From positions 23,450-87,449 of the forward strand of contig CAZLOL010000001.1 in the NCBI GenBank assembly GCA_964561045.1: a DNA stretch of 64,000 bases. Reading direction: 5' to 3'. The notes under the pieces are model-generated. The model had not been told where the DNA came from and did not search any database. It saw only the letters and a program-made list of their open reading frames with translations. Below, in pieces: positions 5,617 to 24,488 of the stretch. This stretch comes from an uncultured Ignavibacteriaceae bacterium (GTDB taxonomy: Bacteria; Bacteroidota; Ignavibacteria; Tepidaquicellales; Tepidaquicellaceae). A program made the translations under genes and the position numbers. Position 1 is the stretch's first letter; each line of letters starts with the position of its first letter.

Positions 5617-6279
5617 ATGATTAAACTTCCGGATTTCAGCAGGGCTTACGAGTATGAGAATGAATTTTATCTCTCCTGCGACAAGCAGAGAATTGGCAAA
5701 CTAATAGCTCATTATGAACTTTTTAAAATGTCACAGAACACAGAGGGTGAAATTATTGAATGCGGCGTATTTAAAGGAGCATCACTCGTGAGGTTTGCAA
5801 TGTTCAGAAAATTATTTCAAAGTAAATTTGAAAAGAAGATTATAGGTTTTGATTCATTTGCAGAATTTCCGCATACTGATTTTGAAGCTGATAAAAAGTT
5901 AAGGGATCACATTGTAAAGGAAGCAGGCGAGCAAAGCATATCGACCGATCAGCTGATGGAAGTTCTGAAAAATAAGAGCTGTGATTATTCAGTTGAACTG
6001 ATAGCAGGAGACATTACATTAACTTTACCTGAATATGTTAAAAAGAATCCTGACCTGAAAATATCACTTCTGAATCTTGATACTGATATTTACGAACCAT
6101 CCGTTACGATCCTTGAAAACTTATACCCGAGGCTGCAGAAAGGCGGAATACTTATTCTTGATGATTACAATGTCTTTCCGGGAGAGACAAAAGCAGCGGA
6201 TGATTATTTCAAAGGAAAGAATGTAAGCATAAAAAATTTTCCATTCAGCAATACTCCATATTATCTTATAAAAGAATAA
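5617..6279 (+). CDS. TylF/MycF-family (macrocin-type) SAM-dependent O-methyltransferase
   Basis: Motifs: ECGVFKGASLVRF ... LNLDTDIYEPSVTILENLYPRLQKGGILILDDY. Confidence 0.7.
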   Translation: MIKLPDFSRAYEYENEFYLSCDKQRIGKLIAHYELFKMSQNTEGEIIECGVFKGASLVRFAMFRKLFQSKFEKKIIGFDSFAEFPHTDFEADKKLRDHIVKEAGEQSISTDQLMEVLKNKSCDYSVELIAGDITLTLPEYVKKNPDLKISLLNLDTDIYEPSVTILENLYPRLQKGGILILDDYNVFPGETKAADDYFKGKNVSIKNFPFSNTPYYLIKE

Positions 6280-6306
6280 TAATTATTAAAAAATTTTTAA
6301 ATTAGT

Positions 6307-7281: not shown

Positions 7282-7287
7282 AAAAAT

Positions 7288-8109
7288 ATGGAATTAAGAA
7301 CAACAAATCCCGAAGAAATAGATTTCAGGAAAAAATTTGATCTGAAAGATAAAGTTATTATAGTAACAGGCGGAATGGGGTTGATAGGCAGGGCATTTGC
7401 CGAAGGATGCGCTCAGTACGGAGCAAATGTTGTAATAGCAGACAGAAAAGGTGCAGGATCAGAAGAGCATGCAGGCAATATGGCAAAAAGATTTAACAGA
7501 GAGATGCTCGGAGTTACTTTTGATGTTGGTAAAAGAGAGGATGTCGAAAAGTTGAAGTCTTATGTACTTGATAAATTCGGAAGGATAGACGGACTTGTGA
7601 ACTGTCATCAGAATAAGACAGCAAAATTTTTTGCAAAGTATGAAGAATATAAGGATGAGGACTGGGATGCTGTGATCGAAACAAATCTGAAAGGCACATA
7701 TCTTACCTGTCAGGTTATCGGCTGTTATATGGCAGAGATAGGAAGAGGATCCATAATAAATATGCCGTCAACATATTCAGTAGTTGCGCCAAATCAGAAT
7801 TTATACAAAGGAACAAGCATAGGTTGTCCTGCTGCATATTCGGCATCTAAAGGAGGTGTAATGGCACTGTCGCAGTATCTGTCTACATACTGGGCAGATA
7901 AAGGAGTGCGTGTAAATCAAATCACGCCTCACGGAGTATGGAACAATCATGAGGAACAGTTTGAAAAGAATTTTGCCAACTTCTCTCCATTGAAAAGAAT
8001 GAGTTACAATCATGAAGTAGCCGGAGCGGCTATTTTTTTATTGTCGGATGCTTCGAGTTATGTGACGGGACATAACCTTGTAGTTGACGGCGGATGGACG
8101 GCGTGGTAA
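7288..8109 (+). CDS. Classical short-chain dehydrogenase/reductase (SDR)
   Basis: Glycine-rich loop VTGGMGLIGRAF and active site YSASKGG (YxxxK). Confidence 0.85.
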   Translation: MELRTTNPEEIDFRKKFDLKDKVIIVTGGMGLIGRAFAEGCAQYGANVVIADRKGAGSEEHAGNMAKRFNREMLGVTFDVGKREDVEKLKSYVLDKFGRIDGLVNCHQNKTAKFFAKYEEYKDEDWDAVIETNLKGTYLTCQVIGCYMAEIGRGSIINMPSTYSVVAPNQNLYKGTSIGCPAAYSASKGGVMALSQYLSTYWADKGVRVNQITPHGVWNNHEEQFEKNFANFSPLKRMSYNHEVAGAAIFLLSDASSYVTGHNLVVDGGWTAW

Positions 8110-8151
8110 AACATAATTTCAAATTACAAATTACTAATAGATAAAATAAAA

Positions 8152-8460
8152 TTGGTAAGATATACTTTTCTGATATGTATTACGCTGGTCAATTACTTAT
8201 TAATTTTAAATTTTATTTTTGATAACAATAAATATTACAACAAAGAGTTGTTTGTAGATTCATTATGGGTATTTGTTTCTCCTGTTATATTTTTTATTCT
8301 GATGTTAATACTTTTTGTTGAAACATTTTTTAATATAAATAAATTGAAAAATAATAATATTTGCAAATTGTCTTATTCTTATAACTTAATACTTTCTATT
8401 ATTCATACTTTTAATTCCTTCAGGTATATTAATGCAATGGTTGACGGAGGATTGATTTGA
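8152..8460 (+). CDS. Doubtful small hydrophobic ORF in a very AT-rich gap (may be non-coding)
   Basis: TTG start, 102 aa, rich in Asn/Ile/Leu/Phe, with 2-3 hydrophobic stretches and no recognisable motif. It sits in the only ~400-bp gap of this gene block. Confidence 0.2.
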   Translation: MVRYTFLICITLVNYLLILNFIFDNNKYYNKELFVDSLWVFVSPVIFFILMLILFVETFFNINKLKNNNICKLSYSYNLILSIIHTFNSFRYINAMVDGGLI

Positions 8461-8511
8461 AAAAAACTAAGTCTATTTATTTTTTATGATTACAGAAATT
8501 TAAAAATATTT

Positions 8512-9564
8512 ATGAATCTTTTAGAGATATTTAAAAATTACGATCCTGATATCATAAGCAGACCTTATGTGATAGCTGAAGCAGGTGTGAATCATGAAGG
8601 CAGCATGGATCTTGCAAAGAGGCTGATAGATGAAGCTGCTCACGGCGGAGCTGCTGCAATAAAATTTCAAACCTATAAAGCTGAATCATTAGCATCAAAA
8701 GAAAGTCCTTCTTACTGGGATCTGAATAAAGAACCAACGAGAAATCAGGTAGAGCTCTTTAAGAAGTATGATAAATTCTGGAAGAAAGAATACGAACAAT
8801 TAAAGGTAGAATGTGACAATGCCGGAATAGAGTTTCTTTCAACTCCATTCGATATCGATGCAGCGGATTTTTTAAACGATCTGATGCCGGCTTTTAAGAT
8901 ATCTTCATCTGACATTACGAATCTTCCTTTTATTAATTATATGTGTAAATTCGGCAAGCCGGTTATTTTATCTACGGGTGCGTCTGCGGTATGGGAAATT
9001 CAGCAGGCAGTAGAGCTGATAGAAGGATGCGGAAATCCGTTATCTTTGCTGCATTGTGTTTTGAACTATCCTACACTGGATGAGAATGCAAATCTGGGAA
9101 TGATACTCGATCAGAAGATCAAATTTCCGAAAGCTGTACCCGGATATTCGGATCATACACTGCCCGGAACAATGGAAGTTCTGAAGATAGCAAATCTGCT
9201 TGGAGCAGTAATACTTGAGAAGCATTTTACTTTTGACAAATCACTACCCGGAAATGATCATTATCATGCCATGGACATAAATGACCTTAAATATTTTTAT
9301 AAAGATATGGACAGGGTATTTATGTTAATAGGTGAATTTAAAAAGAAGCCTTTGTTAACCGAAGAAGATTCCATTAAAAATGCAAGAAGAAGTCTGGTCT
9401 CTAAAAGAAATATCCAGGCAGGTGAGACAGTAAGATTTGAGGATCTTACATGGAAGCGTCCCGGATCCGGTATAAGCCCAAGGCATATTGAAAGTGTTAT
9501 TGGAAAGAGAGCAGTTACTGACATAGCAGAAGATTCAGTCCTTAAGTGGAATATGTTTGAATAA
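8512..9564 (+). CDS. Nonulosonic acid synthase, NeuB/PseI/LegI/SpsE family
   Basis: The N-terminal YVIAEAGVNHEGSMDLAKRLIDEAAHGGAAAIKFQTYK is the NeuB TIM-barrel N-terminus. The C-terminal RRSLVSKRNIQAGETVRFEDLTWKRPGSG is a SAF-like domain. Confidence 0.9.
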   Translation: MNLLEIFKNYDPDIISRPYVIAEAGVNHEGSMDLAKRLIDEAAHGGAAAIKFQTYKAESLASKESPSYWDLNKEPTRNQVELFKKYDKFWKKEYEQLKVECDNAGIEFLSTPFDIDAADFLNDLMPAFKISSSDITNLPFINYMCKFGKPVILSTGASAVWEIQQAVELIEGCGNPLSLLHCVLNYPTLDENANLGMILDQKIKFPKAVPGYSDHTLPGTMEVLKIANLLGAVILEKHFTFDKSLPGNDHYHAMDINDLKYFYKDMDRVFMLIGEFKKKPLLTEEDSIKNARRSLVSKRNIQAGETVRFEDLTWKRPGSGISPRHIESVIGKRAVTDIAEDSVLKWNMFE

Positions 9565-9611
9565 GAAATTATAAATATAAATTAAAAAAAATTAATTAGG
9601 AGAATTATAAA

Positions 9612-10250
9612 ATGAAGCAAACATCACAGGAAGAAGTATGGAAAACAAAATTCGGAGAAGAGTATAATAACAGAAACATATTTGATAATAAAGCACTTGA
9701 TGAAGTTTATATAAGCGACATAAATATTTCCAGAACAGCGATGAACGAAAAATTCATTGGAGAACTTGACCGTGAATTGAAAATTCTTGAAGTCGGCTGT
9801 AACATAGGATTGCAGCTGACGAATCTTCAGGAGATGGGATTCAGAAATTTATACGGAATAGAACTGCAGCCCCACGCAGTTGAGCTGGCAAAGCAGAGAA
9901 CAAAAGGGATGAACATCATACAGGCAACCGCTTATGACATTCCCTTCAAGGATAAATATTTTGATCTGGTTTTTACCAGCAGGGTATTGATTCATCTGAA
10001 CCCTGAAGAAATAAACAAAGCAATAAAAGAAATCGTACGCTGTTCAAGTAATTATATTTACGGAAATGAATACTATGCCGATGAGCTTACTGAAATAAAA
10101 AATTATCATGGTCAGAACAATATTGCCTGGAAGAGAAATTTTCCACAGCTGTACCTGGATCTTTTTCCAAACCTGAAGCTTCTGAAAGAGGAAAAATATA
10201 AGTATACATTTAATGATGATCTTGATACAACATATTTGTTACAGAAATAG
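9612..10250 (+). CDS. Class I SAM-dependent methyltransferase, resembling the pseudaminic-acid-biosynthesis-associated methylase family
   Basis: Motif I is ILEVGCNIGLQL. The N-terminal VWKTKFGEEYNNRN resembles that family's N-terminus (from memory, not searched). An AGGAG sits about 10 nt upstream of the ATG. Confidence 0.65.
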   Translation: MKQTSQEEVWKTKFGEEYNNRNIFDNKALDEVYISDINISRTAMNEKFIGELDRELKILEVGCNIGLQLTNLQEMGFRNLYGIELQPHAVELAKQRTKGMNIIQATAYDIPFKDKYFDLVFTSRVLIHLNPEEINKAIKEIVRCSSNYIYGNEYYADELTEIKNYHGQNNIAWKRNFPQLYLDLFPNLKLLKEEKYKYTFNDDLDTTYLLQK

Positions 10251-10252
10251 TA

Positions 10253-11041
10253 ATGAGCAGGAAACCGAAAATAGTCGCGTGCATTGAAGCAAGGATGGGT
10301 TCAAGCAGACTTCCGGGAAAGGTATTAATGGATATCGGGGGAAAGCCGGCTTTGCAGATATTAACGGAACGGCTTTCTCAATCTAAATATATTGATGAAG
10401 TAATCATAGCAACAACAGTAAGTCCCGCGGATGAAAAGATCGAAGAGTTCGGAAAAAGATCAGGCATACATGTTTACAGAGGAAGTGAAGAAGATGTGCT
10501 TGGAAGAGTTGTCGGAGCTGTGGAATCAGTCAATGGCGAGATCATAGTGGAGATAACAGGTGATTGTCCGCTTATGGATCCCGGCGTTCTTGATAGTGTT
10601 CTCGATGAGTATTTCAGTAATTTTCCTGAATATGATTATGTGACCAATATCGGCTATGTAAAAGATCATAAAAGGGAAATTCCTTTAGGTATGGATGTCC
10701 GTGTATTTACATATAAAGATCTGAAGTACATCAGTGAAATAACAAATGATCCTGAAGACAGGGAGCATGTTTCTTTGTATTTCTTCAGAACAGGCAAAGA
10801 TAAATACAGGCTATTCAATATAAAGACGCCTGAGAAGTGGAAAAGAGATTACAATCCGAGATTATGCCTTGATACAAAAGAAGACCTTGAAGTAATAAGA
10901 AAAATTTATGAGTCATTAATCAAAGATAAAAAAGATTTTAATCTTGAGGATATTTTAAATTTTACAGACAAGAACAGAGACATAACCAGAATCAATTCTG
11001 AAGTAAAACAGAAGACAGTAAGCAATCTTGAGCAGATATAA
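10253..11041 (+). CDS. Cytidylyltransferase, CMP-KDO/CMP-nonulosonate synthetase family (SpsF/PseF-like), copy 2
   Basis: Motifs IVACIEARMGSSRLPGKV, ITGDCPLMDP, PLGMDVRV, DREHVSLY and PRLCLDTKEDL are motif-for-motif colinear with 4845..5585. Confidence 0.8.
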   Translation: MSRKPKIVACIEARMGSSRLPGKVLMDIGGKPALQILTERLSQSKYIDEVIIATTVSPADEKIEEFGKRSGIHVYRGSEEDVLGRVVGAVESVNGEIIVEITGDCPLMDPGVLDSVLDEYFSNFPEYDYVTNIGYVKDHKREIPLGMDVRVFTYKDLKYISEITNDPEDREHVSLYFFRTGKDKYRLFNIKTPEKWKRDYNPRLCLDTKEDLEVIRKIYESLIKDKKDFNLEDILNFTDKNRDITRINSEVKQKTVSNLEQI

Positions 11042-11987
11042 AGTAAGTATAATCGGTTGCGGGGACATTGGATTTCTGTTTGATCACAAAAAGGATATCA
11101 AAGGAGCTTTGACACATTTCAAAGCATTCAACGATTCGGATAAGTTTGAAATAGTTTCTGTTTGTGATTTTAAGGAAGAGGTAAGGCAAATCATAAAAAG
11201 TGAACATAAGATTAAAGTATATGATGATTATCCAAAAATGTTTGAAGAAACATATCCTGAAGTAATCATAATTGCATCGAATGATGAATCACATTTTGAG
11301 ATTTTAAAAAAGATAACTGTTTACAAACCAAAGCTTGTTTTTTGCGAGAAGCCTGTAACGCTTGATTACAATGAAACAAAGGAAATTGTAAAACTATATG
11401 AAGATAATAATATTCCGCTTCAGGTAAATTACACGAGGAGATTTCTTAATGAATTTTATGAAATAGGGAATATGATCAGGCAAAAAGATATCGGAGAGCT
11501 GGAGTCGGTTACTTTTTATTATTCACGCGGGCTTACGCATAATGCTTCACATTATCTTGACCTTATAGACTGGTATATAGGGGAAACGGAAAAAAATCTA
11601 ATCAATATTTCAATTAAAGATGGAATAAGCAAAACAGATGGGACATACAGCTTTGATATGATATACGAAAACGGACTTGAGATCAGATTCATAGGTTTGA
11701 ATCCAACTAAACTTTCATTTGCTGAAGTTGATTTTATCGGAACAAAAGGGAGAGTCAGGATAAACTATAAAAATGAAATTGAGAAATATGATATAAAAGA
11801 AAATAGAATGTTCAAGGGTTATTCAGCATATAATTTATATGAAAGCAAGCCTATCAGATTTGAAGAAGCACTGCCGAATGCAGTGGAGAATATATACAAT
11901 ACATTAAGAAGCAGAGAGGATTTAAAATCACCTGCTTCTAATTCGATTAAAATTTTTGAATTAATAAACAGAATCAAGGAGAAATAA
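11028..11987 (+). CDS. Gfo/Idh/MocA family oxidoreductase, copy 2
   Basis: TTG start with a 14-nt overlap on the upstream gene. Rossmann motif KVSIIGCGDIG and FCEKP. Confidence 0.75.
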   Translation: MSRYKVSIIGCGDIGFLFDHKKDIKGALTHFKAFNDSDKFEIVSVCDFKEEVRQIIKSEHKIKVYDDYPKMFEETYPEVIIIASNDESHFEILKKITVYKPKLVFCEKPVTLDYNETKEIVKLYEDNNIPLQVNYTRRFLNEFYEIGNMIRQKDIGELESVTFYYSRGLTHNASHYLDLIDWYIGETEKNLINISIKDGISKTDGTYSFDMIYENGLEIRFIGLNPTKLSFAEVDFIGTKGRVRINYKNEIEKYDIKENRMFKGYSAYNLYESKPIRFEEALPNAVENIYNTLRSREDLKSPASNSIKIFELINRIKEK

Positions 11988-11989
11988 CT

Positions 11990-13309
11990 ATGTCAAGATT
12001 AGCCTTACTCGGGGGAGATCCCGTACGTACAAAAATATTTCCGCAGAGCAATACAATTGGGGAAGAAGAGAAAAAAGCAGTAATGAAAGTTCTTGATTCC
12101 GGAAATCTTTCTCAGTATGTAGGTTCTTGGAACAAGGATTTCAAAGGCGGTCCGACTGTTCAGCAGTTTGAAAATGACTGGGCGGAAGCATTCGGAGTAA
12201 AATACTGCCATGCCGTTAACTCAAACACTTCGGGTTTATATGCCTGTATCGGGGCATGTGATATAGGTCCCGGAGATGAAGTAATAGTATCTCCATATAC
12301 AATGACAGCAGGAGCAATTGCTCCTTTGATATACGGAGCCGTTCCTGTTTTTGCAGATATAGATGAAGATATATTCTGTCTTGATCCAAAAAGCATTGAA
12401 GCGAACATTACCTCAAGGACTAAAGCAATATTAGTAGTCCATATATGCGGTCATCCGACGGATATGGATGAAGTTATGGCAATTGCAAAAAAATATAATT
12501 TAAAGGTAATTGAGGACTGCGCTCAGTCACCAATGTCAACATACAAAGGCAGGTTTGTCGGAACGATCGGTGATGTAGGGATTTTCAGTCTGAATTACCA
12601 TAAGCACATTCACACAGGAGAGGGGGGAATGATAGTTACGAATGATCCTGTGATTGCCGAGAAAGTAGAATTGATAAGGAATCACGGAGAGGCAGTAGTT
12701 GAAGGAAAGAAAACGAAGGATTTATGGAATACATTCGGATTTAATTACAGAATGACAGAGATGGAAGCAGCAGTTGGAATAGAGCAGTTAAAAAAGCTGC
12801 CTGATCTGATCAACAGGAGAATAGCAAATGCAAATTATCTTTCAAAGATACTTGGAGAACTTCCGGGAATAATTCCGCCTATGGTTAAAGAAAACTGCAA
12901 GCATGTATTTTATCAGCAGACATTCAAATTCAAAAGAGATATTATCGGGATTCACAGAAATACATTCATAGATGCGATGAAAGCAGAACTGCCTACAATG
13001 GTTTTGAGGGAATCAACTCCTATAATCGGATGTGGATTTGCTCCGCCTCTTTATTTGCAGCCGATTTATCAGCAGAGACTTCATAAGTGTTCATTTAACT
13101 GTCCGAGATATGACGGTTCAGTCTCTTATGAAAAAGGGCTTTGTCCTGTCACAGAGAAGATGTTCTATGAGGAAGTTTTTACACATGAGTATATGAGACC
13201 GAGTTTTTCACAGAGAGATCTCGAAGATGTAGTTAAAGCTTATGAGAAAGTTTATGAGCATGTATCTGATCTGAAAGAATATGAAATGAAAAACACAGTC
13301 ACGGCTTAA
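11990..13309 (+). CDS. DegT/DnrJ/EryC1/StrS family PLP-dependent sugar aminotransferase (long form, 439 aa)
   Basis: LNYHKHIHTGEGGMIVTND contains the Schiff-base Lys motif. NSNTSGLYACIGA is also present, and AGGAG lies upstream of the ATG. Confidence 0.85.
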   Translation: MSRLALLGGDPVRTKIFPQSNTIGEEEKKAVMKVLDSGNLSQYVGSWNKDFKGGPTVQQFENDWAEAFGVKYCHAVNSNTSGLYACIGACDIGPGDEVIVSPYTMTAGAIAPLIYGAVPVFADIDEDIFCLDPKSIEANITSRTKAILVVHICGHPTDMDEVMAIAKKYNLKVIEDCAQSPMSTYKGRFVGTIGDVGIFSLNYHKHIHTGEGGMIVTNDPVIAEKVELIRNHGEAVVEGKKTKDLWNTFGFNYRMTEMEAAVGIEQLKKLPDLINRRIANANYLSKILGELPGIIPPMVKENCKHVFYQQTFKFKRDIIGIHRNTFIDAMKAELPTMVLRESTPIIGCGFAPPLYLQPIYQQRLHKCSFNCPRYDGSVSYEKGLCPVTEKMFYEEVFTHEYMRPSFSQRDLEDVVKAYEKVYEHVSDLKEYEMKNTVTA

Positions 13310-14356
13310 ATGCAGAAGAAAATTCTGATGGCATTTGATGATCCCGGCGGCGGGCTCGCAGTAAGTTCGCTTATAGAAAGATTACAGCATGAAGAAATTG
13401 ATCTTGAAATATATTCAGGGAAACTCAGCGAAAAATTTTTAGAAAAAGATAAAACGGTTTACAATAAAATTGATTCTAAGATAACAAGGGAAGATGCAGC
13501 GGTTATAATTGATAATGTTCAGCCTGATCTACTGATTACGGGCACAGGCGGGGGCAATGCAGAGCAGGAGCTTAGAAATGCGGCCTATAAAAAGAACATA
13601 AAGAGCATAGTAATACTTGATTTCTGGAAAGACTATTCGAGACGCTGGCTTTATGCTGCTTATTCACTGGCTGAAATGAAGGATAAGATTTGTGTAATGG
13701 ATGAATTTACAAAAGAAGAAATGACCGGTGAAAATTTTCCCTGTGAAAATATTGTAGTTACGGGTCATCCTTACCTGGATGAAATATTCAACCATAGAAA
13801 GAACAATTCTGAGCAAATTAATTTCAGGAAAAATCATATATTATTTCTTTCACAGCCATTGCAAATAATTGGTTTAAAAGATTACAAAATTCATCCGCTT
13901 AAAACCCTTCTTGAAAGTTTAATAAGGCTGACTTCTGAAAATAATTCTGAATACACTTTGAAAATTAAGCTTCATCCTTCTGAAGAAATGACAACTGAGA
14001 TTGAAGACTTAAAAAGATCTTATGATTCGAAATATCTCCGGATTAATTTTGCTGACAAATCCTCGTCACTGGAAGAGCAGATACTTGAATCAGAAATAAT
14101 TGCAGGTTATAATACAATTGCTATGTTTGAAAGCAGGGCAATGAACAGGAGAACGGTAAGTTTAAAAGTCGCTCCTGTCAGAAAGTCGCTTTCAATAGCT
14201 ATGGAAACAGCCGGAATAGAGATCATAAATGCTGATGAGGAAAGTATAATTGAATGTCTTAAAAATTCAAAGTCCGGATCATACAGGAAAGGAATTTTCA
14301 AAGGCGGAATTGACAATTGTGTTAAATTAATATTAAGTGAATTAAATCTGAATTAA
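13310..14356 (+). CDS. Uncharacterised two-Rossmann (GT-B-like) protein; candidate for the missing nucleotide-sugar hydrolase/epimerase or a transferase
   Basis: The ATG abuts the upstream stop. Motifs ILMAFDDPGGG, ITGTGGGNAEQE, VVTGHPYLDEI and IKLHPSEE suggest a GT-B-type fold. No family was recognised with certainty. Confidence 0.3.
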   Translation: MQKKILMAFDDPGGGLAVSSLIERLQHEEIDLEIYSGKLSEKFLEKDKTVYNKIDSKITREDAAVIIDNVQPDLLITGTGGGNAEQELRNAAYKKNIKSIVILDFWKDYSRRWLYAAYSLAEMKDKICVMDEFTKEEMTGENFPCENIVVTGHPYLDEIFNHRKNNSEQINFRKNHILFLSQPLQIIGLKDYKIHPLKTLLESLIRLTSENNSEYTLKIKLHPSEEMTTEIEDLKRSYDSKYLRINFADKSSSLEEQILESEIIAGYNTIAMFESRAMNRRTVSLKVAPVRKSLSIAMETAGIEIINADEESIIECLKNSKSGSYRKGIFKGGIDNCVKLILSELNLN

Positions 14357-14367
14357 CAATAAATTTA

Positions 14368-14943
14368 ATGTCCATGAAAAATCCATTCTTAACAGGCGAA
14401 AAAATTTATTTATCTCCATTGACAAAAGAAGACATTTCTGCAGATTATATCGGCTGGCTTAATGACAGTGAAGTCTGTAAAGACAATTCACATGCAACAT
14501 TTCCTAATACTTATTCTAAAACTTTGTCCTATGTAGAATCTGTTGAGAAGAGCGGAAATGAAATTGTATTTGCAATCAGATGGAAAAAAAATGATATTCA
14601 CATCGGGAATATTTCATTGCAAAATATAAACTGGATAAACAGATCTGCGGAGATTGCCATAATAATCGGGAATAAGAAATACTGGAATAAAGGTGTTGGC
14701 AGTGAGGCATACAAACTTGTTATAGGATACGGATTCCGGACACTTAATTTAAACAGACTTTCTTCAGGGCAGACTGTAACTAACAGAGGAATGATAAGTG
14801 TCTGTGAAAAAAACGGATTGAAAAAGGAAGGAACTTTAAGAGAAGTATTATTCAAAAACGGAGAATACAATGACGCAGTGATATACTCAATTTTATTTAA
14901 AGATTTCAGGAAAAAAGCAAACATAAAACAAAATGAAGGATAA
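14368..14943 (+). CDS. GNAT family N-acetyltransferase (RimJ/RimL-like; PseH-like by context)
   Basis: Motifs IAIIIGNKKYWNKGVGSEAYKL and LNLNRLSSGQTVTNRGMISVCEKNGLKKEGTLRE. Confidence 0.8.
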   Translation: MSMKNPFLTGEKIYLSPLTKEDISADYIGWLNDSEVCKDNSHATFPNTYSKTLSYVESVEKSGNEIVFAIRWKKNDIHIGNISLQNINWINRSAEIAIIIGNKKYWNKGVGSEAYKLVIGYGFRTLNLNRLSSGQTVTNRGMISVCEKNGLKKEGTLREVLFKNGEYNDAVIYSILFKDFRKKANIKQNEG

Positions 14944-16132
14944 AGATTACGGAAAGCCTCAGATGGAAGGTGTACAGTATTGTATAAGATGCTGTATCCC
15001 TTCAACACAGGAGCTGGTAATGTTCGATGAAATGGGAATTTGTCAGGCATGTCAGTCATCCGAGCAGAAGATACACATCAACTGGGTTGAAAAGGAAAAG
15101 AAGTTAAGAGAGATATTAGAGAATGCAAAAGCTAAAGCAGGAAGCAACTATGACTGCATTGTTCCTATCAGCGGCGGCAAGGACAGTACTTTTCAACTTT
15201 ATGTATTGACTCAGATATACGGAATGAAACCTCTCGCAGTAACATTCAGCCATAACTGGTACAGTGAAACAGGGTGGTATAATCTTTTAAATTCTCTTGA
15301 AAAATTTAATGTTGATCACATCATGTTTACACCTAACAGGGATCTTGTAAACAGAATAGCAAAGCGGTCACTTGAGGCAATAGGAGATACTTGCTGGCAT
15401 TGTCATGCAGGAGTAGGTGCATTTCCTCTTCAGGTAGCTGTAAGATTCAATATTCCCCTTTTGATTTACGGAGAATCAATAGCTGAATCATCAGGAAGAT
15501 CTTCTTATAAAAATCCTCTGATGGAATTCAATGTAGATTATTTCATGAAGGTCTCTACAAAGCGGAATCCAAGAGAGATGGTATGCAGCTATATTTCGGA
15601 AAAAGACATGAAGCCTTTCTTTTTTCCGACAATTGAAGAACTGGAAACAGCGGGTGTCAGACTAATGCATCTCGGAGATTACATTTTCTGGGATGATGAG
15701 AGACAGATGGAATTTGTAAGAGATAATTACGGATGGAAGGAGACAGAAGTTGAAGGTACTTATAAAGGATATAAAAGTGCAGAGTGCATTATGCCGGGAA
15801 TGCATGATTTTACAAACTATCTTAAGCGCGGATACGGGAGGTCAACATATCAGGCAAGTGTGGATGTCAGGAATGGTTTGCTTTCGAGGGATGAAGGTTT
15901 CGAATTATCAAGAAAATATGACAGTGAGATCCCCGAGTCACTTGAATATTATCTTAAAATAACCGGCATGACAAAGGAGGAATTTTATGAAATGATGTTG
16001 GAAAAAAGATTACCTGAGATCAAGCATTTACAGCTGCCTGTGACAGTCAAATCAAGAAAGAACAAAGAGAGAATTTTACCATATCCGGAACAATTAATAG
16101 AAAAAGAGGAAAACAGAAGAAGCAATGAATGA
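14933..16132 (+). CDS. N-acetyl sugar amidotransferase (PP-loop; WbuX/WbpG/PseA family)
   Basis: A Cys-rich N-terminus (CIRCCIPS...GICQACQ) is followed by the PP-loop PISGGKDST. There is an 11-nt overlap with the upstream GNAT gene. Confidence 0.8.
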   Translation: MKDKDYGKPQMEGVQYCIRCCIPSTQELVMFDEMGICQACQSSEQKIHINWVEKEKKLREILENAKAKAGSNYDCIVPISGGKDSTFQLYVLTQIYGMKPLAVTFSHNWYSETGWYNLLNSLEKFNVDHIMFTPNRDLVNRIAKRSLEAIGDTCWHCHAGVGAFPLQVAVRFNIPLLIYGESIAESSGRSSYKNPLMEFNVDYFMKVSTKRNPREMVCSYISEKDMKPFFFPTIEELETAGVRLMHLGDYIFWDDERQMEFVRDNYGWKETEVEGTYKGYKSAECIMPGMHDFTNYLKRGYGRSTYQASVDVRNGLLSRDEGFELSRKYDSEIPESLEYYLKITGMTKEEFYEMMLEKRLPEIKHLQLPVTVKSRKNKERILPYPEQLIEKEENRRSNE

Positions 16133-17516
16133 TACACTTAGTAAGATAGAAAAAAATATTTTTCTGGAACAAAGCATTAAGGAAATTACTGAAAAAATTT
16201 CTTCCGGGGAAATTACTCCTCTTGACATTGCACTTGAAAGCATAGAGCGGATCGAGAAGTATAACGAGAGATACAAAGTATGGGTTTGTTATGACAGAGA
16301 AATTCTTTTTAAGCAGGCAATGAAAATTTCAGAGAGACTGAATGAGGGCGGTAAGATTAGAGCATTGGAAGGAATACCTGCTGGTATAAAAGATATTTTC
16401 AATACATATGATTTTCCGACACAGATGGGAAGTCCTTTATGGCAGGGATTTACGTCGGGAAATGACTCAAGGGTTGTATATTATCTGAAACAGGCAGGAG
16501 CAGTAGTGCCGGGAAAGACAGACACCGCAGAATTTGCAGTACATGCAATCGGAAACTGTCTGAATCCTCATGATATAACAAAAACACCCGGAACCTCATC
16601 AAGCGGATCTTCCGTAGCAGTTTCACTAGGAATGGTACCTGTCTCAATAGGAACACAAACAGCAGGCTCGATAGTGAGACCAGCAAGTTTCTGCGGAGTT
16701 TACGGTTGCAAGCCTTCATTCGGACTTATTCCAAGGACCGGAATGCTGAAGACAACTGACAGTTTGGATACAATTGGATTTTTTACTTCTAAATATGAAG
16801 ACCTTGAAAGAGTATTTGAAATTGTAAGAGTACACGGATCAAATTATCCGATAAGCAATGATGCATTGAGCGATAAAAAGCGGCAGAACAAGGCTGCGGA
16901 CAGAACATGGAAAATTGCCTTTGTGAAAACTCATACTTGGGATCATGCATTTGATTATGCTAAGGATGCTATTTTAAAATTTGTAAAAAAATTATCAGAA
17001 ACAGATGGCATAGAAATAACTGAGGCAGAATTACCTGAAGATATTCAGTCAGCACACAAAGTACATGAAAGAATTTATGACAAAACATTAGCATATTATT
17101 TTCAGGAAGAATTCAAAAAACCCGAGCATGTTTCATCTATAATGAACGAGATCATAAACAGAGGAAATCTGATCTCAGTAAGTGAATATCATCAGGCATT
17201 AAAAGATCAGGAAAAAATAGTATCCTGCATGGATGATTTCTTTGATGATCATGATATAATTGTTTCTTTGAGTACAGCAGGAGAAGCACCGGACAGAAAT
17301 GAAACAGAAAGACCTGATCCGTCCCTGATTTGGACATTATCGCATTTACCTGTAGTAAGTTCACCGGCATTTATTTCACCGGACGGATTACCATTTGGAG
17401 TACAATTTGCAGCCAGAAAATACAACGACCTGTTGTTATTCAGATTTTTAGACAGATTACGTGAATCTTGTCTTATACCTGATGGAGCAAACCCTCTTCC
17501 AAACGTACATCACTAA
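16125..17516 (+). CDS. Amidase-signature family enzyme (GatA-like amidase/glutaminase)
   Basis: The Ser-cisSer-Lys elements are intact: PAGIKDIF, GTSSSGSSVAV, GTQTAGSIVRPASFCG. The 8-nt ATGAATGA start/stop overlap with the amidotransferase gene indicates translational coupling. Confidence 0.85.
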   Translation: MNDTLSKIEKNIFLEQSIKEITEKISSGEITPLDIALESIERIEKYNERYKVWVCYDREILFKQAMKISERLNEGGKIRALEGIPAGIKDIFNTYDFPTQMGSPLWQGFTSGNDSRVVYYLKQAGAVVPGKTDTAEFAVHAIGNCLNPHDITKTPGTSSSGSSVAVSLGMVPVSIGTQTAGSIVRPASFCGVYGCKPSFGLIPRTGMLKTTDSLDTIGFFTSKYEDLERVFEIVRVHGSNYPISNDALSDKKRQNKAADRTWKIAFVKTHTWDHAFDYAKDAILKFVKKLSETDGIEITEAELPEDIQSAHKVHERIYDKTLAYYFQEEFKKPEHVSSIMNEIINRGNLISVSEYHQALKDQEKIVSCMDDFFDDHDIIVSLSTAGEAPDRNETERPDPSLIWTLSHLPVVSSPAFISPDGLPFGVQFAARKYNDLLLFRFLDRLRESCLIPDGANPLPNVHH

Positions 17517-17550: not shown

Positions 17551-19197
17551 ATGAAAAGATTACTGCTTAGAAATAAATATGTCAAAAAATTAAACATTAG
17601 TCTCAAGCTTAAAAAATTTTATAGTAACGGATTAAAGGGGGATGAAAATTCATCCCGAGTATTATTCTGGTCTACTGGAGGAATGATAATTCAGACAAAT
17701 CTGGAAGCCGCTATTGCAGTTTCTTTAAAACTCAGGGGGCATAAAGTAAAAATGATTCTTTGTGACGGAGTATATAAAGCCTGTGCAAAGAGAGTGGATT
17801 TTCCTGATGTGCCAATAAATGACTGGGGTAAATTTTGCCGAAGCTGTATTCATCAGAATTCAAAACTGCTGGAAAGATTAGGAGTTGATATCGGCTATAT
17901 AGGTGAATATGTTTCTGAAGAGAAAGCTTTATTATTAAGGGAGAAAGCAGGAAAAGTAAATTTTGATAATTACAGAAATCTATCTTATGATGGAATTGAA
18001 CTGGGAAGTCATCTGGAATCCGCAATGACAAGACATACAAGAGGAGGTTCATTTGAAGGTCTGGAATATTTACTTAAAGAGTATGCATTTGCAGTTTTAG
18101 TAAATGCTGAAGCGGCAAAAAATGCAATGAATGAATTCAAACCTGAAAGAGTATATATGTCACACGGAATTTATGCCGACTGGGGTCCTGCTTTAAGCGT
18201 ATTCCTGCACAATAAGATTCCGATTGTCTCATACATTTGCTGTTATCTGGCAGCGCATTTTTTCTTCGGAACTGTCAGGGAGCTCAAGGAGACTTTTTTA
18301 ACGATAAGCGAAAGCTCCTGGAATAAAAATAAGGAAGCAGAGCTTACAGAATTAAAATTAAAGAGGTTAAGTAATTTTCTTGACAGAAGATATTTAAGCA
18401 ATGTAACTCATGACATGAAAGGACTTCTTAAAGATTTCACCGGAGACAAAGAAATTTATTATAAAAAATACGGGCTTAACAGGAACAAAAAAGTCTGGGG
18501 AATTATGACTCATATTAACTGGGATGCAGCCTCAGATTATTTCGGAATGATACATAAAAATTTTGATGAATGGCTTTATGATACGATAAAAGTAATTTAC
18601 AACATAACAGATGTTCAATGGTTAATAAAAATACATCCATCGGAGCTTAATGATAACCCCGAAACCGGATGCCAGAAATTCATTGAGAATAATTTTCCTG
18701 ATCTGCCGTCTCATATAAAAGTAGTAAAAATGGATGATGACATAAGCCCTCTAGATTTTTATAATCTGTTAGACGGAGGAGTGACAGTAATGGGAACGGG
18801 CGGTCTGGAGTTAAGTTTAAAAGGGAAACCTGTTATACTTGCCGGCGATGCACATTATTCGGGCAAAGGTTTTACCAATGATGCAACAGACAAAACGAAT
18901 TACAGAAAATTGTTATATGAAACATTGAGCATGGAAAAATTAGATCCGGAGAAAATTTTATTAGCATCAAAGTATGCATATATATATTTTATACAGAAGC
19001 AGATACCCTTGCTGCCAACAATTTCTGAAGAACTTCTGATTGATTTCAGTAAATTAAATTATCTGATCCCTGGGCACAACAAATTCATGGATTTTGTATG
19101 TGAAAAATTAATAAGCGGTGAAGATTTCATTCTTCCCGAAGAACTGGTTGAACTGACACATATAACAGACCTTGATCAGATTAGACAATCCGCATAA
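17551..19197 (+). CDS. Capsule_synth-like (KpsC/KpsS-type) putative keto-sugar-acid transferase
   Basis: The ORF-track start 17461 overlaps the amidase gene, whereas ATG 17551 (MKRLLLRNKY) follows its stop. The C-terminal half, WLIKIHPSE...TVMGTGGLELSLKGKPVILAGDAHYSGKGFT, resembles the KpsC/KpsS pattern. Confidence 0.45.
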   Translation: MKRLLLRNKYVKKLNISLKLKKFYSNGLKGDENSSRVLFWSTGGMIIQTNLEAAIAVSLKLRGHKVKMILCDGVYKACAKRVDFPDVPINDWGKFCRSCIHQNSKLLERLGVDIGYIGEYVSEEKALLLREKAGKVNFDNYRNLSYDGIELGSHLESAMTRHTRGGSFEGLEYLLKEYAFAVLVNAEAAKNAMNEFKPERVYMSHGIYADWGPALSVFLHNKIPIVSYICCYLAAHFFFGTVRELKETFLTISESSWNKNKEAELTELKLKRLSNFLDRRYLSNVTHDMKGLLKDFTGDKEIYYKKYGLNRNKKVWGIMTHINWDAASDYFGMIHKNFDEWLYDTIKVIYNITDVQWLIKIHPSELNDNPETGCQKFIENNFPDLPSHIKVVKMDDDISPLDFYNLLDGGVTVMGTGGLELSLKGKPVILAGDAHYSGKGFTNDATDKTNYRKLLYETLSMEKLDPEKILLASKYAYIYFIQKQIPLLPTISEELLIDFSKLNYLIPGHNKFMDFVCEKLISGEDFILPEELVELTHITDLDQIRQSA

Positions 19198-19936: not shown

Positions 19937-20926
19937 ATGAAAGTCTCAGTCATCATAACAACTTATAACAGAGCAGGAATAATACCAATGTGCATGGATT
20001 CACTGATCAAACAGAATTTTCCTAAATCAGATTATGAAATTATAATAGTAAATAATAATTCATCTGATAATACTGAAGAAGTAATTGAAAATTATATTGA
20101 GAAATATCCTGATACAAATATAAAATATTACTATATACCAAAACCAGGACAGGTATATGCCAGGCAGATAGGAATTCTTGCTTCGCAATATGAGATACTT
20201 AGTTTTACTGATGATGACGGAATCCTTTCACCTGACTGGATTCGGGAAATAGTAAATGCATTTGAACTTAACAAGAATGCTGTTGGTGTAGCAGGAAAGA
20301 TAAATATCAAGTGGGATGAGCCGCCTCCCGAATGGATTTATGAATACGAAAACTATCTCGGCAAACTTGATTACGGTGATGAAATAAAATTTGAAAAAGG
20401 AATGTATATGAATGCCGGAAATTTAAGCATTAAAAAAGATGTGCTTATAGAAGTAGGCGGATTCAATCCTGAAATGATCGGCGACTGGCTTGTTGGTGAT
20501 GGGGAAACGGGACTTTGGATAAAATTAAAAAAGAAAGGGTACATCATTGGATGGGCACCAAAAGCATTAATGGAGCATTACCAGATAGCTAAAAAAAATG
20601 CAACGGTTGAGGATATAAAAAGAAGATTTATTAATAACGGGATATGCATTCCTTATAATATATATGCTATTGATAAGGAAGGAAATATGGCATTGTTAAA
20701 AAACATGTTTTTTTCTTTTAAGCATAAACTTAAGTGGTATTTAAGAATACTGAAATTCAGAGTTAAAGGGGATGAGAAAAACAAAAATTATTCGATTTTC
20801 AGAGAAGCCTTTTATTCTGCTCAGATAAATTACACTTTAAAATTAATTTTTGACAAAGAATTCAGATCAGCGTTAACAAAAGGTGACTGGTTAATTACAA
20901 AACAAAAGGAGAATGTCATAGCATGA
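19937..20926 (+). CDS. Glycosyltransferase family 2
   Basis: Motifs [42 protein letters not shown] and FTDDDG. Confidence 0.85.
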
Positions 20927-22224
20927 GTAAAACAGTATATGTAGGAATGAGCGCAGACCTTATTCACCCCGGTCATCTGAATATAATAAATGAAGCCAGG
21001 AAGTTAGGTGAAGTCACGATCGGCTTGCTGACAGACAGGGCAATTGCGAGTTATAAGAGACTTCCTTTTCTGACTTATGAACAGAGAAAGCTGATCATAG
21101 AGAACATCAAAGGTGTTCATATAGTAATACCACAGGAAACTTTAGATTATGTTCCCAATTTGAAATTAACAAAGCCGGATTATGTTGTTCATGGTGACGA
21201 CTGGAAAACCGGAGTTCAGAAACAGACCAGGGATAAAGTAATTGAGGCTCTGAAGGAATGGGGAGGAAAATTAGTTGAAGTAGAGTATACGAGAGGAATC
21301 TCATCTACACAAATGATAAACAGTCTGAAAGAAATAGGGACTACACCGGAGATAAGAATGAAAAGATTAAGAAGGTTACTTGAAGTAAAGCCTATAGTTA
21401 GATTAATAGAAGCTCACAACGGATTAACAGGGCTGATCGCAGAAAACATTCAGACAATAAAAGACAATCAGCCAAGAGAGTTTGACGGAATGTGGCTGAG
21501 CAGTCTTACAGATTCGACAGCAAAAGGCAAGCCTGATATTGAGGCAGTTGATGTAACGGCAAGGATGCAGACGCTGAATGATATAGTAGAAGTAACAACC
21601 AAGCCGATCATATATGACGGAGATACAGGCGGCCGAGCCGAGCATTTTGTTTTTACCGTAAAGACGCTTGAGCGTCTTGGAGTGTCAGCAGTGATAATTG
21701 AAGATAAGATCGGTTTAAAAAAGAACTCTCTTTTTGGAACAGACGTGGATCAAACGCAGGACAGTATTGAGGATTTCAGCCATAAACTATCAATGGGAAA
21801 GAAGTCTCAGATCACAAAAGAATTTATGATCATCGCAAGAGTAGAAAGTCTGATTTTAAAAAAGGGAGCAGATGATGCGCTGACTAGATCCAAAGCTTAT
21901 ATTGAGGCAGGTGCAGACGGCATAATGATACACAGCAAAGAAAAGAAACCGGACGAGATACTAGAATTCTGTAAAGGATATAAGAGCTTTGAAAAGAAAG
22001 TACCGCTGGTAGCCGTTCCTTCTTCATATAATACTATTTATGAAAAAGAACTTATTGAAGCCGGTGTAAATATTGTAATTTATGCGAATCAGTTATTACG
22101 AAGTGCATATCCTGCAATGGTTGATACTGCAAAATCTATTCTTGAAAATGAAAGATCTTACGAAGCTGACAGCAGTATGATGCCGATAAATGAGATACTA
22201 AACTTAATTCCGGGCGGAAAATAA
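20923..22224 (+). CDS. ppm: Bifunctional HIGH-type cytidylyltransferase / phosphoenolpyruvate phosphomutase
   Basis: The N-terminal ~130 aa, [23 protein letters not shown], are TagD/ECT-like with an HxGH motif. The C-terminal domain carries [13 protein letters not shown] and [13 protein letters not shown], the EDKxxxxxNS PEP mutase discriminator. There is a 4-nt overlap with the upstream GT2 gene. Confidence 0.85.
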
Positions 22225-22227
22225 TTC

Positions 22228-23355
22228 ATGATTAGTCCCAAGAGATTTTTTGAGATATTAAACAGCAACGGCATAAATTTTTTTACTGGTGTTCCTGATT
22301 CTCTGTTAAAAGATTTTTGTGGATACGTGACGGATAATGTTTCAGAGAAAGATCATATAATAAATTCAAATGAAGGTGCTGCAATAGCATTAGCTAGCGG
22401 ACATTACATTGCAACCGGAAAACCTGGACTGGTCTATATGCAGAATTCCGGATTAGGGAATGCAGTCAACCCATTGCTTTCTTTAGCTGATTCCGAAGTT
22501 TACAGCATCCCTATTCTTTTGGTAATTGGCTGGAGAGGTGAGCCGGGAAAGAAAGATGAACCACAGCATATAAAACAGGGAAAGGTCATGCTGGATTTGC
22601 TGAAAGCTATGAATATCAGTTATGATATAATTAACAGTTCGACCTGCAACATAGAAGAGATATTAAGAAAAGCATATTCAGCGATGACAGAACTATCATG
22701 TCCGTATGCATTGATAATTTCAGAAGGATCATTTGAAGAATACAAGATGGTCCATGATATGCAATCAGATTATCAGTTTAACAGAGAAGAAGCCATTAAG
22801 TTAATACTGGATGATCTCAGCAATAATGAAATTATAGTTTCCACAACCGGTAAAACATCAAGGGAAGTATTTGAGTACAGGAAAAAGAATAATCAGGGAC
22901 ATCAGAATGATTTTCTGACTGTCGGATCAATGGGACATTGTTCACAGATCGCGCTTGGTATTGCCCTTGAGAAAAACAGAAAACAAGTTTACGTATTAGA
23001 CGGTGACGGAGCTGTAATCATGCAGATGGGATCACTTGCAATATTAGGAAGCGAAGCTCCGGAAAACTTCAGGCATATATTACTTAATAATGGTGCTCAT
23101 GACTCGGTAGGCGGACAGCCGACTGCCGGGTTCAAAACTGATTTTTCTGCAATAGCTAATGCCTGCGGATATAATCTTGCGATCAGAGCAGAGACCGAAA
23201 AGGAGATAAAGGACGGATTATCAAAGATGAAAGAAATACCGGGACCGGCATTCCTTGAGATCAGAGTTAATAAAGGAGCACGAAAAGAACTGGGAAGACC
23301 TACATCAACTCCTTTGGAGAATAAATTAACTTTAATGGATAATCTTTTAAAATGA
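22228..23355 (+). CDS. ppd: Phosphonopyruvate decarboxylase (ThDP-dependent)
   Basis: The N-terminus reads INFFTGVPDSLLKDFCGYV. The ThDP motif is LDGDGAVIMQMGSL...LLNNGAHDSVGGQPT. It follows ppm directly. Confidence 0.85.
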   Translation: MISPKRFFEILNSNGINFFTGVPDSLLKDFCGYVTDNVSEKDHIINSNEGAAIALASGHYIATGKPGLVYMQNSGLGNAVNPLLSLADSEVYSIPILLVIGWRGEPGKKDEPQHIKQGKVMLDLLKAMNISYDIINSSTCNIEEILRKAYSAMTELSCPYALIISEGSFEEYKMVHDMQSDYQFNREEAIKLILDDLSNNEIIVSTTGKTSREVFEYRKKNNQGHQNDFLTVGSMGHCSQIALGIALEKNRKQVYVLDGDGAVIMQMGSLAILGSEAPENFRHILLNNGAHDSVGGQPTAGFKTDFSAIANACGYNLAIRAETEKEIKDGLSKMKEIPGPAFLEIRVNKGARKELGRPTSTPLENKLTLMDNLLK

Positions 23356-24488
23356 TTCAGGCTGAATATTCCGGAACAGGCTGCATAAAAAATCTTACAG
23401 AAATATTATCAAACATAAAACCCCGGAATATATTTCTAGTTGCAGGGAAAAATTCATACAAAACATCCGGAGCTGAAGGAATACTTGGTGAATTATTAAA
23501 TGAATATACAGTAACACTCTTTAATGAAGTCAGCGGTGATCCTTTAATCGAAAACATTATTAAAGGGATGGATATTTTTTTAGAATCAGATTGTGACATA
23601 GTTATAGCTATCGGCGGCGGAAGTGTAATAGATACGGCAAAATCAATAAATGTTTTAAGCAGTCAGGAAATAAATCCTAGGCATATTATAGAAGGCAAGG
23701 AGAAGATAGTAAATAAAGGCAAACCATTGATTGCAATACCAACTACATCCGGAGCCGGCAGCGAGTCTACACATTTTGCAGTTATTTATATGGAGAAAGA
23801 GAAGTATTCTTTGGCACATGAATATATTTTACCTCAATATTCAATTGTTGATCCGCAGCTTACTTTTGATCTGCCTTCAGGAATTACGGCAACATCAGGA
23901 ATAGATGCATTCTCACAGGCTATAGAATCTTTCTGGAATGTAAATGCGAATGATGAATCAAGAGAATATTCTGAAAAGGCAATCAAGCTTATCCTTGAAA
24001 ATATTAAGTCTGCTGTAAATGAACCAACGGAATACAGCAGGGAAAATATGTCAAAAGCCGCACATCTTGCCGGGAAAGCAATCAACATTACAAAGACAAC
24101 CGGTCCGCATGCAGTATCATACGCAATGACTTCATATTACGGGATACCTCACGGGCAGGCGGTTAGCGTCACACTTGCGGAATTTCTGGAATTTAATTTT
24201 AATGTAACGGAATCAGATCTAATGCCCGGGTTAAATTTAAATGAAGTCAGAGCTAGCCATGAAAAACTTCTGAGGATACTTAAATGCAGAGATATTAGTG
24301 AAGGAAAAAATCTAATCAATGAACTGATTAAATGTATCGGATTAAAAACAAAATTATCCGAGCTCAACATCAGGTCACAGGAAGATCTAAAGATAATTAT
24401 TGAAAGTGTAAACTTAGAAAGATTAATGAACAATCCGAGATCAGTTTCTAAAGAAGACCTTGGCAGAATATTAGAAAAAATTTTATAG
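23352..24488 (+). CDS. Group III iron-containing alcohol dehydrogenase; phosphonoacetaldehyde reductase by context (2-hydroxyethylphosphonate-forming)
   Basis: Motifs IAIGGGSVIDTAKS, IAIPTTSGAGSESTHF and IPHGQAVS. A 4-nt overlap links it to ppd. The family call is firm, but the substrate is inferred from position. Confidence 0.65.
   Translation: MIQAEYSGTGCIKNLTEILSNIKPRNIFLVAGKNSYKTSGAEGILGELLNEYTVTLFNEVSGDPLIENIIKGMDIFLESDCDIVIAIGGGSVIDTAKSINVLSSQEINPRHIIEGKEKIVNKGKPLIAIPTTSGAGSESTHFAVIYMEKEKYSLAHEYILPQYSIVDPQLTFDLPSGITATSGIDAFSQAIESFWNVNANDESREYSEKAIKLILENIKSAVNEPTEYSRENMSKAAHLAGKAINITKTTGPHAVSYAMTSYYGIPHGQAVSVTLAEFLEFNFNVTESDLMPGLNLNEVRASHEKLLRILKCRDISEGKNLINELIKCIGLKTKLSELNIRSQEDLKIIIESVNLERLMNNPRSVSKEDLGRILEKIL

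Follow-up and report, generated by a model that had tools for sequence, protein, structure and literature searches.

We analyzed a stretch of 64,000 nucleotides from the metagenome-assembled genome of an uncultured Ignavibacteriaceae bacterium (hereafter, the window, that is, the whole 64-kb stretch). The window covers a polysaccharide gene cluster with all genes on one strand, and within this cluster lies a pair of adjacent genes that encode a predicted PP-loop N-acetyl-sugar amidotransferase (NASAT) of the WbuX family and an amidase-signature enzyme (Table 1). The source assembly comprises 4.47 Mb in 539 contigs, is 91% complete and has a guanine-plus-cytosine content of 36%. The end of the WbuX gene and the start of the amidase gene share the 8 nt ATGAATGA, and this start/stop overlap is, by its layout, a predicted translational coupling of the two genes.

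The product of the first gene matches the NCBIfam profile TIGR03573 ("WbuX, N-acetyl sugar amidotransferase") with 337.5 bits, against a cut-off of 203.2, over residues 15-355, and a search of the whole genome with this profile returned the same open reading frame (ORF). The PP-loop motif SGGKDS occupies residues 80-85 and is invariant among 13 aligned members of the WbuX clade described below; the tetracysteine knuckle (CxxC...CxxC, C17/C20 and C37/C40), for which metal binding is predicted only, is invariant in the clade alignment as well. The sole solved structure of a relative is that of the Legionella enzyme LpNASAT (8WEX; E-value 2e-45), and the paper describing it marks the family by an SGGxDS PP-loop and a zinc-binding tetracysteine motif (PMC10607449). 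The product of the second gene matches the Pfam family Amidase (PF01425) with 238.5 bits against a cut-off of 27. Its predicted catalytic residues K89, S158 and S182 (Lys, cis-Ser and nucleophile Ser, respectively) are invariant in 15 aligned relatives with 59-84% identity, as are R185 and many residues around the triad, and the spacing of the triad equals that of K62/S131/S155 in malonamidase E2. A preliminary description of this DNA, made from the letters alone, had pointed out the 8-nt overlap, the SGGKDS motif and N-terminal Cys knuckle of WbuX, and the catalytic strings PAGIKDIF, GTSSSGSS and GTQTAGSIVRPAS of the amidase. The coordinates and reading frames of the overlap were confirmed, and all these elements were found in the translations.

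Relatives of the amidase were sought in one genome per species, which yielded 255 stretches with relatives, and the best 80 loci were analyzed. These loci span 19 named phyla and include two methanogen (archaeal) genomes as well as the Saccharimonadota, Minisyncoccota, Kaiseribacteriota and Adleribacteriota lineages of the candidate phyla radiation (CPR). In 78 of the 80 loci, the gene immediately preceding the amidase on the same strand encodes a WbuX homolog (54-96% identical). The other two are a locus of reversed order, with WbuX downstream (L074), and a locus in which only 160 nt of contig precede the amidase (L042). The distance between the WbuX stop codon and the first aligned amidase codon is mostly no more than a few tens of nucleotides in the 66 genome loci without a fusion. 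In the opposite direction, aligned members of the WbuX clade served as the query and retrieved 80 metagenome contigs (59-95% identity). The amidase is the next gene in all 75 of these loci that have at least 300 nt of downstream sequence, and the other five contigs end too early. Across 134 loci, the identity of WbuX to its window counterpart correlates with that of the amidase to its own (r = 0.87), as expected if the two were inherited as a unit. Among isolate records, the pair is found on a plasmid of Methylosinus sporium UOS2 and in Solidesulfovibrio alcoholivorans DSM 5433; a protein search of a plasmid collection with the window amidase gave no match at an E-value of 1e-60. Conservation of the pairing in relatives had been named beforehand as a check, and the linkage of WbuX and the amidase is apparently obligate in both search directions.

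Canonical acetamidino systems include WbuXYZ of Escherichia coli O145, WbpG with HisH2/HisF2 of Pseudomonas aeruginosa O5, PseA with Cj1315c/Cj1314c of Campylobacter jejuni, and MMP1081-1083 of Methanococcus maripaludis. A trio from Sphingomonas (RS19260-19270) has been described in the same canonical terms, with WbuX listed alongside HisF2/AglZ and HisH (PMC11340318). Profile searches with PF00977 and PF00117 detected no HisH- or HisF-like gene either in the window, as the preliminary description had already noted, or in the entire 4.47-Mb assembly. Thus, dedicated paralogs resembling wbuY and wbuZ, which that description had proposed to look for elsewhere in the genome, were not found. The only gene above the PF00977 cut-off in the whole genome is of the HisA type (contig C45, positions 6455-7219, minus strand); it scores 225.6 bits with TIGR00007 and only 92.8 bits with the WbuZ model, for which the cut-off is 299.7, and its neighbors are unrelated. 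Of the four PF00117 matches in the genome, three were read as CarA-, GuaA- and PyrG-type proteins by length and domain alone, and the fourth is a gamma-glutamyl-hydrolase-type (Peptidase C26-like) protein adjoining a putative lpxK-like gene. With a lone HisA and neither HisF nor HisH in a 91%-complete assembly, histidine synthesis is either incomplete in this organism or encoded in part by unassembled sequence.

For comparison, WbuX-family matches near or above the curated cut-off were collected from 401 genomes of the same phylum, a selection that is independent of the amidase and comprises 60 loci with 66 WbuX-family genes. Two large clusters of neighbors emerged in these loci, one of the HisF/WbuZ type (representative: 188 bits with PF00977; best NCBIfam match WbuZ, 246 bits) and one of the HisH type (representative: 223.6 bits with TIGR01855, above the cut-off). 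At least one of the two lies within 8 kb of 57 of the 66 WbuX genes, and both lie within 1.5 kb of 49. Among the nine genes with no HisH or HisF nearby, one (L107) is the only other amidase-linked gene in this sample. By contrast, profile searches of six-frame translations detected HisF- or HisH-like sequences in only two of the 160 amidase-type loci. In both, a Methanoregula chromosome (L037, 133-11407) and S. alcoholivorans (L065, 909-11389), the HisH and HisF genes are located directly beside a second, distant WbuX paralog. These two loci are internal controls of partner specificity, in that each WbuX paralog retains its own partner type although the paralogs are only a few kilobases apart; S. 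alcoholivorans is, moreover, a culturable source of both systems. The pair also occurs (L051) in a 993-kb Kaiserbacteria record, deposited as chromosome 1, that yielded no match to PF00977 or to HisH and in which no HisH, HisF or HisA gene was detected. The survey of neighbors suggested in the preliminary description has thus shown that the amidase partner and HisH/HisF-like genes are mutually exclusive in a near-perfect manner.

In a maximum-likelihood tree of 81 WbuX-family proteins (IQ-TREE, LG+C20 with posterior mean site frequencies, quick search; unrooted), all 35 amidase-linked or fused WbuX proteins are located on one side of a single branch, with a support value of 99 in the Shimodaira-Hasegawa-like approximate likelihood-ratio test and a stem length of 0.99. 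The internal branches of this clade are short, across many phyla, and its neighboring group consists of HisH/HisF-linked WbuX proteins. A FastTree phylogeny of all 140 rows agrees with the amidase-linked clade. The pattern in the unrooted tree is consistent with a single replacement event followed by horizontal spread. A C-terminal motif of the clade, P-F-P-x-Q, seemed to be clade-specific but had been counted on truncated alignments and was not used.

In 12 genome loci and three metagenome loci, 15 altogether, WbuX and the amidase are fused in frame, with no stop codon between them. WbuX is always N-terminal and the amidase C-terminal in these fusions, which are 865-880 aa long (797 aa where the contig ends) and form a subclade found mostly in Thermodesulfobacteriota and Chloroflexota. 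The fusion from S. alcoholivorans DSM 5433 (875 aa) matches TIGR03573 at residues 13-352 (315 bits), and its amidase part spans residues 422-854. This protein was modeled with AlphaFold2 from an alignment of 147 rows, 15 of them fusions. The model has a mean predicted local distance difference test score (pLDDT) of 90.6 and a predicted template modeling score (pTM) of 0.83, and is disordered only in the linker (residues 391-406) and at the last residues. Because this pTM exceeds the value expected for independently placed halves, the model suggests that the two halves, of approximately 390 and 470 residues, hold a defined mutual arrangement.

The best full-length solved relative of the window amidase is malonamidase E2 (1OBI; E-value 1e-51, residues 25-436), whereas the GatA structure 3H0L aligns with residues 15-305 only (E-value 1e-37). 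Likewise, the match to the GatA model TIGR00132 is confined to residues 23-307 and, at 202.7 bits, stays below the cut-off (481.1). In the active site, the string GTQTAGSIVRPA corresponds to GTQTGGSVIRPA of malonamidase, with R185 at the position of R158 of malonamidase E2, which we take to bind the carboxylate of the substrate, malonamate; 1OBK, a mutant at R158, is among the structural matches. The genome encodes a separate GatA (contig C91, positions 9417-10850; 459.8 bits with PF01425) that is 26% identical to the window amidase. The segment MYLNDIYTV of this GatA presumably carries the Asp that binds the alpha-amino group of glutamine, and we take the glutamine-recognizing residues of GatA to be Arg358 and Asp425 (Staphylococcus aureus numbering). 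At the position of the GatA KRR segment, where the pairwise alignment is weak, the window amidase has no conserved Arg. An argument for glutamine as the donor based on the GatA binding residues was dropped, these residues being either not conserved or not alignable. Because the amidase resembles malonamidase E2 more closely than GatA, we read this protein as a putatively active enzyme that would hydrolyze some small amide bearing a carboxylate, with glutamine and asparagine as the obvious candidates for the donor. The term GatA-like, used in the preliminary description, is thus appropriate for the N-terminal two thirds, which do align, but not for the protein as a whole, which falls below the GatA cut-off and has malonamidase E2 as its best full-length relative. 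Close relatives of the amidase (60-95% identity) carry only the source names "amidase" or "GatA family amidase".

The pair is embedded in a predicted nonulosonic-acid cassette (Table 1). Gene counts for the cassette refer to the best 80 amidase-retrieved loci and are minima because many contigs are short.

Table 1. Features of the gene pair and its surroundings in the window, with the number of related loci (of the best 80) in which each neighboring gene was detected.
Feature	Positions	Strand	Evidence and remarks	Related loci
NeuB-family nonulosonic acid synthase	8512-9564	+	PF03102, 228.5 bits, plus SAF domain	43/80
Pseudaminic-acid-associated methylase family member	9612-10250	+	TIGR03587, 175.8 bits (cut-off 112)	22/80
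CMP-sugar-type cytidylyltransferase	10253-11041	+	PF02348, 107 bits	38/80
Gfo/Idh/MocA oxidoreductase	11028-11987	+	PF01408, 62.4 bits; usually directly before DegT	58/80
DegT/PseC-type sugar aminotransferase	11990-13309	+	PF01041, 297 bits	64/80
348-aa protein without a Pfam family	13310-14356	+	Predicted UDP-GlcNAc 2-epimerase (WecB/NeuC) fold	at least 35/80
GNAT N-acetyltransferase	14368-14943	+	PF13302, 76.4 bits; weak PseH match; overlaps WbuX start by 11 nt	67/80
WbuX/NASAT-family PP-loop N-acetyl-sugar amidotransferase	14933-16132	+	399 aa; TIGR03573; member of the amidase-linked clade	
ATGAATGA, 8-nt WbuX/amidase overlap	16125-16132	+	Amidase ATG 16125-16127, WbuX TGA 16130-16132	
Amidase-signature enzyme, malonamidase-E2-like	16125-17516	+	463 aa; PF01425; proposed ammonia-generating subunit	
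548-aa protein	17551-19197	+	Weak KpsC/KpsS (Capsule_synth) match, PF05159, 26 bits; downstream of amidase	26/80

The GNAT gene of the related loci occurs mostly as part of a GNAT-WbuX-amidase triplet, and the encoded acetyltransferase probably installs the N-acetyl group that WbuX would later convert. The methylase gene is inserted between GNAT and WbuX in three loci (L035, L039 and L048). The best NCBIfam match of the DegT aminotransferase is PseC, with 220.5 bits, below the cut-off. The AlphaFold2 model of the 348-aa protein (pLDDT 91.1, pTM 0.88) has a two-domain fold and, in a Foldseek search, matched WecB, MnaA and NeuC structures with template modeling (TM) scores of 0.6-0.73 and 11-16% sequence identity; accordingly annotated in Table 1, this protein may be the hydrolyzing epimerase of the nonulosonic-acid pathway. 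The 548-aa neighbor is lineage-specific, the loci that encode it being almost all from Ignavibacteria/Bacteroidota. We infer that the cassette holds candidates for each step of nonulosonic-acid synthesis except for the 4,6-dehydratase of the extended short-chain dehydrogenase/reductase family, in the place of which an oxidoreductase is encoded; no such dehydratase gene was found adjoining the nonulosonic-acid module (4845-14943). The oxidoreductase and the DegT aminotransferase may jointly make the second amino group without 6-deoxygenation. The module contains two pairs of cytidylyltransferase and Gfo/Idh/MocA genes (4845-5585/6307-7281 and 10253-11041/11028-11987) around a single NeuB gene.

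Taken together, these results point to the following mechanism. As judged by family membership, the WbuX PP-loop/zinc-knuckle enzyme would use ATP to activate the carbonyl oxygen of a sugar N-acetyl group, and ammonia would displace the activated oxygen to produce an acetamidino group. Comparative genomics suggests that the ammonia for the PP-loop site would come from the co-translated amidase, rather than from a HisH-like glutaminase by way of a HisF-like barrel; the Ser-cisSer-Lys triad would hydrolyze a small carboxylate-bearing amide, for which glutamine or asparagine is the simplest candidate donor. Gene order indicates that the target of WbuX would most likely be the N-acetyl group provided by the overlapping upstream GNAT of the cassette. 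In our assessment, the pair is thus likely to be a variant two-component amidotransferase that depends on ammonia, in which the amidase is the subunit that generates the ammonia and replaces the HisH/HisF proteins in this WbuX clade. A non-canonical two-component amidotransferase had been put forward in the preliminary description, and the idea is now supported by the apparently obligate linkage, the 15 fusions, the confinement to one clade and the exclusion of HisH/HisF. No description of a WbuX-amidase pair was found in open-access papers and bioRxiv, where those on the WbuX family deal only with its canonical form, and we class the pair as a known amidotransferase family with a different, previously undescribed partner that would supply ammonia.

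Several observations weigh against this assignment. The amidase half of the modeled fusion is structurally closer to malonamidase E2 (Foldseek TM score 0.89, 32-33% identity) than to the channel-coupled GatA (TM score 0.77-0.80, 24% identity). At the GatA segment MYLNDIYTV, the window amidase has a 9-residue gap, in a region where the pairwise alignment is weak; therefore, glutamine use cannot be argued by homology. The earlier term "glutaminase" is for this reason better replaced with "amide hydrolase". Some members of the family may manage with free ammonia, as eight of the 66 comparison WbuX genes have neither partner type in their vicinity. Fusion and tight linkage also join enzymes of consecutive steps and, therefore, alone do not prove ammonia transfer. 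Finally, unpublished data mentioned in PMC2952790 indicate that M. maripaludis apparently needs the HisF-like but not the HisH-like gene, so the HisF-like protein may do more than channel ammonia.

Some of these observations would fit a different division of labor, in which the amidase performs a separate hydrolytic step, trimming an amide or acyl group of the sugar or recycling a by-product, and WbuX uses free ammonium. The trimming of a sugar amide had been put forward as the alternative in the preliminary description. Malonamidase E2, the closest solved relative, is indeed a free-standing hydrolase, the eight partnerless WbuX genes in the phylum sample make operation without a partner seem possible, and enzymes that act consecutively in a pathway are often fused. 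However, a separate step leaves unexplained why HisH/HisF are missing from 158 of the 160 amidase-type loci when they are present at 57 of the 66 other WbuX genes, and why each HisH/HisF pair that does occur in the amidase-type loci has its own second WbuX beside it. It also fails to account for the fact that the amidase was never found without a clade WbuX in the best 80 genome loci, nor the clade without the amidase in the 75 metagenome loci. Given this constant co-occurrence, a subunit fits better than a tailoring enzyme, the presence of which usually follows the structure of the glycan, as is the case for the methylase (22 of the 80 loci) and the 548-aa neighbor (26 of the 80). We consider a separate hydrolytic step to be unlikely.

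Less probable still, and in our view quite improbable, is a product other than a plain acetamidine, whether an N-substituted amidine formed via a released amine, the outcome of a ClbL-like transacylation, or a carboxylate amidated by WbuX. N-substituted amidines are plausible products of the cassette because a methylase accompanies the pair in 22 of the 80 loci, sometimes between GNAT and WbuX, but the methylase by itself accounts for N-methylation. Leg5AmNMe7Ac of Campylobacter is a precedent for such N-methylation. The amidase-signature transacylase ClbL (8ES6) is among the structural neighbors of the amidase half, but only at rank 49, and no supporting evidence for transacylation was found. 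The long stem (0.99) that separates the clade from other WbuX proteins would allow for altered chemistry, but the window WbuX scores well above the family cut-off and retains the PP-loop and the zinc knuckle, and an N-acetyl substrate is indicated by the strict order of the GNAT, WbuX and amidase genes. A last possibility is that WbuX and the amidase are functionally unrelated and adjacent only by chance or through an error of annotation or assembly, the source genome being a fragmented metagenome assembly of 539 contigs. For practical purposes, this possibility is refuted by the same arrangement in 153 independent genome and metagenome loci from 19 named phyla, among them chromosome-level records and two isolate records, and by the 15 in-frame fusions.

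Beyond the assignment of the amidase as an ammonia-generating subunit, a broader scenario can be outlined, although it is tentative and, taken as a whole, rather doubtful. Under this scenario, a single event put the amidase in the place of HisH as well as HisF, with a closed ammonia path to the WbuX PP-loop, which would amount to a further architectural class of amidotransferases, made up of an amidase-signature hydrolase and a PP-loop synthetase. The donor might be a malonamate-like carboxy-amide instead of glutamine. Horizontal transfer would later have carried the system, along with a nonulosonic-acid pathway seemingly devoid of a 4,6-dehydratase, into about 20 phyla, CPR bacteria and methanogens among them.

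Further features were noted elsewhere in the 64-kb cluster. A module at positions 20923-25685 consists of a phosphoenolpyruvate mutase fused to a cytidylyltransferase-like domain (20923-22224), a thiamine-diphosphate enzyme read as a phosphonopyruvate decarboxylase-type protein (22228-23355), an iron alcohol dehydrogenase (23352-24488) and a glycerophosphotransferase-like protein (24489-25685), and suggests a phosphonate-decorated glycan. It is followed by an aminoglycoside 3-N-acetyltransferase-like gene (25682-26500) and a gene for a protein with DUF4910, DUF2172 and winged helix-turn-helix domains (26497-27780), both of which are kept downstream of the WbuX-amidase pair in 14-17 of the 80 related loci. 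Three Wzt-type ATP-binding cassette (ABC) transporter ATPases with Wzt_C carbohydrate-binding domains (1765-3135, 28817-30109 and 32426-33715) suggest that several ABC-transporter-dependent glycans are encoded in tandem. Two formyltransferase genes, each with Formyl_trans_N and Formyl_trans_C domains (39889-40821 and 42891-43799), are located near DegT aminotransferase genes (36103-37218 and 45766-46896), so N-formylated amino sugars are likely to be made as well.

Positively charged acetamidino groups affect antigenicity, phage recognition and surface charge. If the proposed function is correct, it would explain how acetamidino groups can be placed on surface sugars by organisms without genes of the histidine pathway, CPR bacteria with genomes of 1 Mb being an example. 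Ammonia hand-over could then be studied in a compact system that consists, in some organisms, of one polypeptide. The proposed function would also provide a functional context for proteins annotated as "amidase" or "GatA family amidase" that are currently not linked to glycan synthesis.

The pair shares with the WbuX/WbuY/WbuZ systems the PP-loop/zinc-knuckle amidotransferase family (TIGR03573), the presumed conversion of an N-acetyl group to an acetamidino group with ammonia and ATP, and the location in a glycan cluster with an aminotransferase and an acetyltransferase that would make the N-acetylamino group. Unlike those systems, in which a HisH-like class-I glutaminase acts with a HisF-like (WbuZ, AglZ) TIM barrel, the pair described here has one amidase-signature protein, its WbuX belongs to a separate clade, and natural fusions to the partner exist. 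Malonamidase E2 of Bradyrhizobium japonicum (1OBI, 1OCL and further structures) has the same active-site string, GTQT-x-GS-xx-RPA, including the carboxylate-binding Arg, but is a free-standing malonamate hydrolase without a synthetase partner, whereas the amidase described here is always linked or fused to WbuX. GatA of GatCAB has the same amidase-signature fold and Ser-cisSer-Lys triad and is a precedent for feeding ammonia to a partner site; however, identity to it is only 24-26%, the C-terminal third does not align, and the partner here is a PP-loop enzyme, not GatB/GatC.

The modular evolution of enzymes is classically illustrated by the amidotransferases, in which a small number of glutaminase types are combined with many synthetase types through ammonia tunnels. 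GuaA, NadE and asparagine synthetase B are PP-loop synthetases with built-in N-terminal glutaminase domains, of the class-I triad, nitrilase or N-terminal nucleophile type. The WbuX-amidase pair resembles these enzymes in that a PP-loop ATP-pyrophosphatase site would be fed by an attached amide-hydrolyzing module, but differs in that the module is of the amidase-signature type and C-terminal, a combination of which we found no description. To our knowledge, amidase-signature hydrolases act as ammonia suppliers only in the tRNA-dependent GatCAB; if the function proposed here is correct, this second, unrelated synthetase partner would show that the amidase-signature module is portable.

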